DNA of 64,000 nucleotides from contig CAYGHE010000002.1 in assembly GCA_964349805.1 (NCBI GenBank), positions 16,489 through 80,488 on the forward strand. The letters are read 5' to 3'. The notes beneath the pieces were generated by a model. The model saw nothing but the letters and a program-made list of their open reading frames with translations, did not search any database and was not told the origin of the DNA. Source of the DNA: an uncultured Candidatus Saccharibacteria bacterium (lineage in GTDB: Bacteria > Patescibacteriota > Saccharimonadia > Saccharimonadales > Saccharimonadaceae). The position numbers and the translations under genes were made by a program. This document shows positions 15,168-15,207 of this stretch, piece after piece. Positions within the stretch are counted from its first letter, which is position 1. The number at the start of each line of letters is the position of its first letter.

Positions 15168-15196
15168 ATTATAAGCTTAATTAGCACTCAGGTCAA
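15168..15196 (-). promoter_or_regulatory. Sigma70-type promoter of the clpC operon (TTGACC-17-TATAAT)
   Basis: Minus-strand TTGACC (15196-15191), a 17-nt spacer, then TATAAT (15173-15168). A GGAGG SD lies upstream of ATG 15099. Confidence 0.7.
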
Positions 15197-15207
15197 TAGA
15201 GTGCTAA
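15181..15207. promoter_or_regulatory. CIRCE element (HrcA operator), perfect consensus
   Basis: TTAGCACTC-aggtcaata-GAGTGCTAA matches the canonical TTAGCACTC-N9-GAGTGCTAA inverted repeat at every position. It overlaps the -35 and spacer of the clpC promoter. Confidence 0.85.

Follow-up and report, generated by a model that had tools for sequence, protein, structure and literature searches.

A perfect CIRCE operator built into the predicted clpC promoter suggests HrcA control of ClpC in Saccharibacteria

Introduction

In the class I heat-shock system of Bacillus subtilis, the repressor HrcA acts through its winged helix on CIRCE, an operator of two nine-base arms separated by nine nucleotides (9-N9-9) that lies ahead of the dnaK and groES genes. 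The targets are organized as the hrcA-grpE-dnaK-dnaJ and groES-groEL operons, and hrcA is autoregulated. The Bacillus operator sits between the -10 element or the start site and the start codon. In the class III system of Firmicutes, the repressor CtsR controls the promoters of clpC and clpP, and also clpE, and the operon runs in the order ctsR-mcsA-mcsB-clpC-radA-disA-yacL. The clpP gene of Streptococcus salivarius is reportedly under dual control by CtsR and HrcA, with a CIRCE in front of it. Another arrangement is found in Mollicutes, whose HrcA regulons include the AAA+ chaperone/protease genes clpB and lon (PMC5138195).

Saccharibacteria live as ultrasmall epibionts and possess very few regulators, and their gene control is almost uncharted. 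In our literature searches, none of the papers listed dealt with HrcA or CIRCE in Saccharibacteria, Patescibacteria or TM7, which is no proof that such work is absent. Here we analyze a 653-kb assembly of a Saccharibacteria genome (Saccharimonadales; 25 contigs, 44% G+C, 93% completeness), of which positions C2:16489-80488 form the window, the whole stretch of 64,000 nucleotides to which coordinates without a contig name refer. Where a gene or site is reported below as absent, this applies to the sampled genomes and, for the present one, to an assembly of 93% completeness; all promoters discussed are predictions from sequence. In this genome the clpC operon promoter contains a perfect CIRCE, so that protein degradation and the chaperones probably share one repressor, HrcA.

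The CIRCE operator and promoter P1 upstream of clpC

Upstream of clpC, the plus strand at positions 15181-15207 reads TTAGCACTCAGGTCAATAGAGTGCTAA, an inverted repeat of the form TTAGCACTC-N9-GAGTGCTAA that agrees with the CIRCE consensus at all 18 defined positions, without a single mismatch. It is the sole match in the 64-kb window even when up to three mismatches are allowed, and shuffling the sequence with its dinucleotides preserved gave a mean of 0.02 chance matches per window. Read on the minus strand, the CIRCE spacer is TATTGACCT and contains the hexamer TTGACC (15191-15196); 17 nt past it, on the same strand, follows TATAAT (15168-15173). We refer to this pair of -35 and -10 hexamers as P1. 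It matches the promoter consensus at 11 of 12 positions, is the joint best hit of a promoter scan between 9000 and 16600, and its -10 lies 68 nt from the clpC ATG (15099). The predicted -35 and most of the P1 spacer are covered by CIRCE. Both structural claims of the original prediction, namely a perfect CIRCE upstream of clpC and a -35 hexamer embedded in its spacer with a TATAAT 17 nt downstream, are therefore confirmed, and the operator is in addition unique within the window.

The gene string clpC to yacL-like and its flanks

Four genes on the minus strand follow P1. The first of them, clpC (12616-15099), encodes a protein of 827 aa with two Clp_N domains, two AAA modules and a short middle domain of the UVR type; its Walker A motifs are at residues 223 and 557, and a ClpP-docking LGF loop is at residue 683. 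The features that tell ClpC from ClpB are all present (Clp_N, two AAA modules, the short UVR-type middle domain and the [LIV]GF loop), and in the comparison with NCBIfam the protein did not reach the equivalog cut-off. The second gene (11631-12635), whose start overlaps the clpC stop by 20 nt, encodes a membrane-anchored protein of 334 aa with one N-terminal membrane helix, the HExxH motif AAHETLHAIY and a long coiled coil; it belongs to no Pfam family, and searches of Pfam and NCBIfam gave sub-threshold coiled-coil matches only. The third is radA (sms; 10260-11615, 451 aa), which scores 534 bits against TIGR00416 with a cut-off of 403. The last gene (9493-10239) encodes a YacL-like, membrane-anchored PIN protein of 248 aa with a probable TRAM domain, where the PIN match is above its cut-off and the TRAM match below. 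A convergent PBP1a gene then closes the string. The gaps within the four-gene string are -20, 15 and 20 nt, and no terminator is predicted between the genes.

Directly upstream of clpC, and in the same direction, lies nusA (15228-16346, minus strand). This agrees with the earlier statement that no ctsR, mcsA or mcsB precedes clpC, and the genes named as following it (clpC, an HExxH membrane protein, radA and a PIN-TRAM gene) were likewise identified correctly, all on the minus strand, with the sub-threshold TRAM match as the one reservation.

HrcA and other regulators of the genome

The hrcA gene lies outside the window, on contig C1 (61002-61712), and encodes a product of 236 aa. Its presence was one of the checks proposed with the original prediction, and the winged helix of the protein is of the conserved HrcA type, with residues 2-79 matched to residues 16-95 of Thermotoga HrcA (1STZ) at E = 1e-14 in an alignment that includes the HTSAGRIPTD motif. 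The domain scores are 63 bits for PF01628 and 22 bits for the winged-helix model PF03444, the latter against a cut-off of 21. The match to the Pfam model of the HrcA C-terminal region is confined to positions 86-215, the last 130, and roughly the first 85 positions of that model have no counterpart. This short form is general in the order, as HrcA was found in 40 of 41 Saccharimonadales genomes, the exception being 81% complete, and the open frames of all 40 are 231-285 aa long, compared with 338 aa in Thermotoga.

CtsR (PF05848), the other regulator to be checked, was detected neither in this genome nor in the 40 relatives, by a search that does detect the Bacillus and Lactococcus CtsR in a control. 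The CtsR tandem heptad operator RGTCAAANANRGTCAAA has no match in the window at up to two mismatches. A CtsR-box reading of the CIRCE spacer was also considered and rejected: GGTCAA on the plus strand is the complement of the -35 hexamer TTGACC, and there is no tandem heptad. The McsB-type kinase domain (PF00217) was not found in the genome, nor was a true ClpX in the 93%-complete assembly, where a single gene of the sigma-70 family was found. Judging from this gene content, ClpC appears to be the only ATPase partner of ClpP. The original prediction had gone further, in that HrcA/CIRCE appeared to have taken over control of the class III-type operon. This part we do not retain, because it implies a replacement and nothing points to a CtsR-bearing ancestor.

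CIRCE sites in front of chaperone and protease genes

With up to three mismatches allowed, the genome contains seven CIRCE sites, whose target genes were assigned from the flanking ORFs as hrcA-grpE, dnaK (two sites), dnaJ, clpP, clpC and groES-groEL. Further copies had been expected at groES and dnaK, and these are indeed present, together with those at hrcA, dnaJ and clpP. The sites before hrcA-grpE, dnaK, dnaJ, groES and clpP carry two or three mismatches each. The clpP gene follows tig. An FtsH gene is also present, and its upstream side has no CIRCE at up to three mismatches.

The promoter design seen at clpC recurs at the other sites. At all six CIRCE promoters the -35 (TTGACC, TTGACA, TTGAGT, TTTACA, TTGACC and TTGAAA) is either contained in the spacer or straddles its border with the right arm, and the -10 follows 17-18 nt on. 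At hrcA, dnaJ and clpP this -10 sits only 6-8 nt ahead of the ATG, and the mRNAs would therefore be leaderless.

Two of these regions have further features of their own. The two CIRCE sites of dnaK are 21 nt apart (C1:60031-60105), one over the -35 and one past the -10; a doublet of this type is also seen in two relatives (G013 and G030), and in a third (G033) the doublet is spaced by 19 nt. The dnaJ CIRCE (C1:57042-57090) is located in a divergent intergenic region, on the opposite strand of which a TATAAT stands 6 nt before the ATG of a gene for a polytopic membrane protein of 219 aa. From this arrangement, the membrane protein gene may share the dnaJ operator.

Conservation across Saccharimonadales and beyond

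For the comparison, 30 ClpC loci were taken from a set of 40 relatives that belong to the same order and represent 17 families; one locus, with only 28 nt of upstream sequence, was left out of the CIRCE count. In all 29 evaluable relatives a CIRCE is found 44-180 nt upstream of clpC, perfect in 17, with at most two mismatches in 28, and with four in the remaining one. Each of the 29 spacers also holds a TTGAC-like hexamer aimed at clpC, which in a few sites extends some bases into the right arm, and the -10 of these clpC promoters is found 16-18 nt past the -35 of the CIRCE spacer. Because the arms of CIRCE are palindromic, the constant orientation of this -35 is explained only by selection on the promoter. 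The closest named ClpC loci belong to 'Candidatus Saccharibacteria', 'Candidatus Saccharimonas' and 'Candidatus Nanosyncoccus' MAGs, and the six named Saccharibacteria loci include five evaluable ones, all with a clpC CIRCE.

The neighborhood is conserved as well. In 28 of the 29 related loci the next gene to follow clpC is an ORF matching the HExxH protein (blastp, 30-51% identity), itself followed by radA wherever the fetched flank extends that far. On the upstream side, 26 related loci have a usable flank; in 21 of them nusA is the immediate neighbor of clpC, in two more a single extra ORF stands between nusA and clpC, and the other three show no nusA.

At the level of whole genomes, all 41 Saccharimonadales genomes hold between one and nine CIRCE sites, and a control with the reversed pattern gave a single match, in one of the 41. 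The regulon was read in five relatives at up to two mismatches. All five have sites ahead of hrcA and groES, four have one ahead of clpP, three ahead of dnaK and two ahead of dnaJ. In one of these five, extra CIRCE sites lie before hsp20-like and ftsH-like genes, which were named from their N-termini only. Among other Patescibacteria, a CIRCE within 500 nt of clpC was seen in about four of 39 families, and in other phyla 74 clpC loci were searched to a distance of 2.5 kb without a single CIRCE. Because the element is conserved in Saccharimonadales and rare or absent elsewhere, the clpC CIRCE very probably functions as an HrcA operator and obstructs the -35.

The same conserved position next to nusA raises the question of whether the repeat acts mainly as RNA, that is, as a terminator of nusA or as a stabilizing or processing hairpin, with its likeness to CIRCE secondary. 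The nusA stop codon and the repeat that follows it are 20 nt apart, the scan of this strand gave no further terminator, and nusA is in the great majority of loci the adjacent gene or one ORF away. As RNA, the repeat region folds at -20.4 kcal/mol (z = -2.7), and roughly half of the relatives have the repeat bordered by an upstream A-run and a downstream T-run, an arrangement like that of a bidirectional terminator. However, what is kept over 17 families is the sequence of the arms, not merely their pairing, and this sequence equals the HrcA consensus. The repeat also precedes hrcA, dnaK, dnaJ, groES and clpP regardless of which gene lies upstream, its loop bears an oriented -35, and in the window the sequence on its 3' side, TTAAGCTT, makes a poor U-tract. 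Termination could be a second function of the repeat next to its operator role and cannot replace it, and we regard an RNA element that only happens to look like CIRCE as highly improbable. In addition to serving as an HrcA operator, the repeat may also end or mark the nusA transcripts.

Internal promoters of the gene string

The original prediction had placed radA under heat-shock repression as a member of the clpC operon. This claim is weakened by the hexamer TATACT (11623-11628, minus strand), a strong -10-like element 7 nt before the radA ATG and a candidate leaderless radA promoter, and by comparable elements in 17 of 23 related loci. With the criterion that five or six of the six TATAAT positions agree and that the hexamer ends 5-9 nt before the ATG, such an element precedes radA in nine of the 23 relatives and the HExxH gene in nine, which gives the 17 loci in all. 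The background of the same criterion is 2% per position and 3.4% at any ATG, and the enrichment at radA corresponds to a binomial p of about 4e-10 against the 2% background, a significance that is overstated as the relatives are not independent. The internal elements have no clear -35, and a TGn extension is present in six of 18. Since the CIRCE promoters of this lineage are mostly leaderless, these internal -10 elements are plausible as weak promoters. On this sequence evidence, radA probably has its own leaderless promoter independent of HrcA, and it is probably only partly under HrcA control. The internal -10 hexamer (TATAAT or TATACT) at several loci takes in the stop codon of the gene before it.

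A second candidate promoter, P2, is found in the clpC leader itself (15106-15134, minus strand). It consists of TTGCGC (15134-15129), a 17-nt spacer and GATAAT (15111-15106), with the ATG 6 nt further on. Its spacer includes GGAGG (15119-15115), which at 15 nt from the ATG is unusually distant for a ribosome-binding site. The six nearest relatives keep the form TTGCG[CT]-17/18-[GC]ATAAT-6 nt-ATG in their clpC leaders, and a seventh has TGTATAAT-6 nt-ATG. A conserved RNA structure was considered for this leader and rejected, as RNAalifold found none and the conserved blocks fit a promoter better. These blocks look like a second, leaderless promoter that would be independent of HrcA, and P2 may give clpC a basal, unrepressed expression. 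The evidence for leaderless internal promoters before radA and the HExxH gene, together with P2, constitutes the new points of this analysis.

A model of shared HrcA control

Taking the operator, the promoter and their conservation together, we hold with high confidence that the clpC element is a functional HrcA operator fused to P1, and that P1 is the main promoter, of the sigma-70 type, of the gene string. In the absence of stress, CIRCE would be occupied by an HrcA dimer that GroEL/GroES maintain in its active state, and in this position the dimer would keep region 4 of the sigma factor off the -35 of P1. Unfolded proteins would titrate GroEL, HrcA would be released, and P1 would fire at the same time as the clpP and chaperone promoters. 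This would induce ClpC and ClpP, the sole Clp pair detected, along with the chaperones. Control is probably graded and not all-or-none, where P2 and the -10 of radA could supply transcripts that HrcA does not block. That HrcA depends on GroEL is assumed by analogy with Bacillus subtilis, and this step is less certain here because about 85 positions at the start of the C-terminal model are missing from the HrcA described here.

Given that only one sigma-70 gene was found and that CtsR and ClpX were undetected, HrcA appears to act as the one transcriptional switch that governs folding as well as degradation by ClpCP. A broader version of the model can be formulated, in which CIRCE is three things in one, an HrcA operator, a carrier of the -35 in a spacer that is otherwise free, and a hairpin or roadblock that ends the nusA transcript, while the truncated HrcA of about 235 aa acts as the sole stress regulator of folding and ClpCP in a lineage with one sigma factor, and weak leaderless promoters keep a basal expression of clpC and radA. 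We offer this combination tentatively, as a rather doubtful proposal when taken as a whole.

Published transcriptomes of TM7x, which cover phases of symbiosis and not heat shock, provide a comparison through TM7x_03020 and TM7x_02110, putative counterparts of genes described here. In these data a Clp ATPase and clpP go up and most chaperones go down. As far as the putative counterparts can be equated, this pattern agrees with a shared control of the Clp genes and not with a single switch.

The opposite movement of Clp genes and chaperones in TM7x also speaks for a reading in which the HrcA site is real and yet of little effect, with clpC and radA expression dominated by P2 and the radA -10. 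Such a reading draws further on the leader blocks TTGCG[CT]-17/18-[GC]ATAAT-6 nt-ATG kept in the nearest relatives and on the -10 hexamers lying 6-9 nt before radA or the HExxH gene, at a frequency (17/23 loci) far above the 2-3% background. On the other hand, no promoter match in the region is stronger than P1, the internal elements have no recognizable -35 and are probably weak, and an operator that is perfect or nearly so throughout the order argues for selection on control by HrcA. We therefore judge a marginal role of the operator to be unlikely and prefer the reading of P1 as the main promoter, repressed by HrcA.

Implications

The predicted outcome is a compact proteostasis regulon under one repressor, consisting of hrcA-grpE, dnaK, dnaJ, groESL, clpP and clpC, and it can be tested in TM7x and Southlakia, strains that are cultivable and genetically tractable. 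Beyond the regulon, the -35 inside the operator spacer emerges as a recurrent promoter design. The case of radA adds a caution: in lineages with many leaderless internal promoters, an inference from operon membership can mislead, as in the idea that heat-shock control extends to radA.

Comparison with known systems

Compared with class I control in Bacillus subtilis, the Saccharibacteria system has the same 9-N9-9 operator, a cognate HrcA winged helix and a CIRCE in front of hrcA itself, and it shares the CIRCE sites ahead of dnaK and groES and the presence of GroES/GroEL. It differs in that the regulon adds clpC and clpP, that dnaK and dnaJ have separate CIRCE promoters, that the -35 sits in the operator spacer, and that HrcA is about 100 residues shorter. 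Class III control by CtsR in Firmicutes has in common with it the order clpC ... radA ... yacL-like and the logic of one repressor over the clpC and clpP promoters, whereas here the string has no ctsR, CtsR heptad repeat, McsB domain or disA, an unrelated HExxH membrane protein stands between clpC and radA, and the repressor site is CIRCE. In Streptococcus salivarius CtsR is also present, while in the genome studied here HrcA stands alone and clpC is covered too. Mollicutes provide the parallel of a reduced genome without CtsR in which HrcA is the sole stress regulator and its regulon extends to AAA+ genes; they belong to a different phylum, the targets are clpB and lon there and clpC and clpP here, and that source (PMC5138195) does not describe a -35 embedded in the spacer. 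In summary, operator and repressor form the classic class I pair, and the genes are arranged as in the Firmicute class III operon, minus the regulator genes of the latter. The finding extends the known HrcA/CIRCE system and does not reveal a new kind of system.
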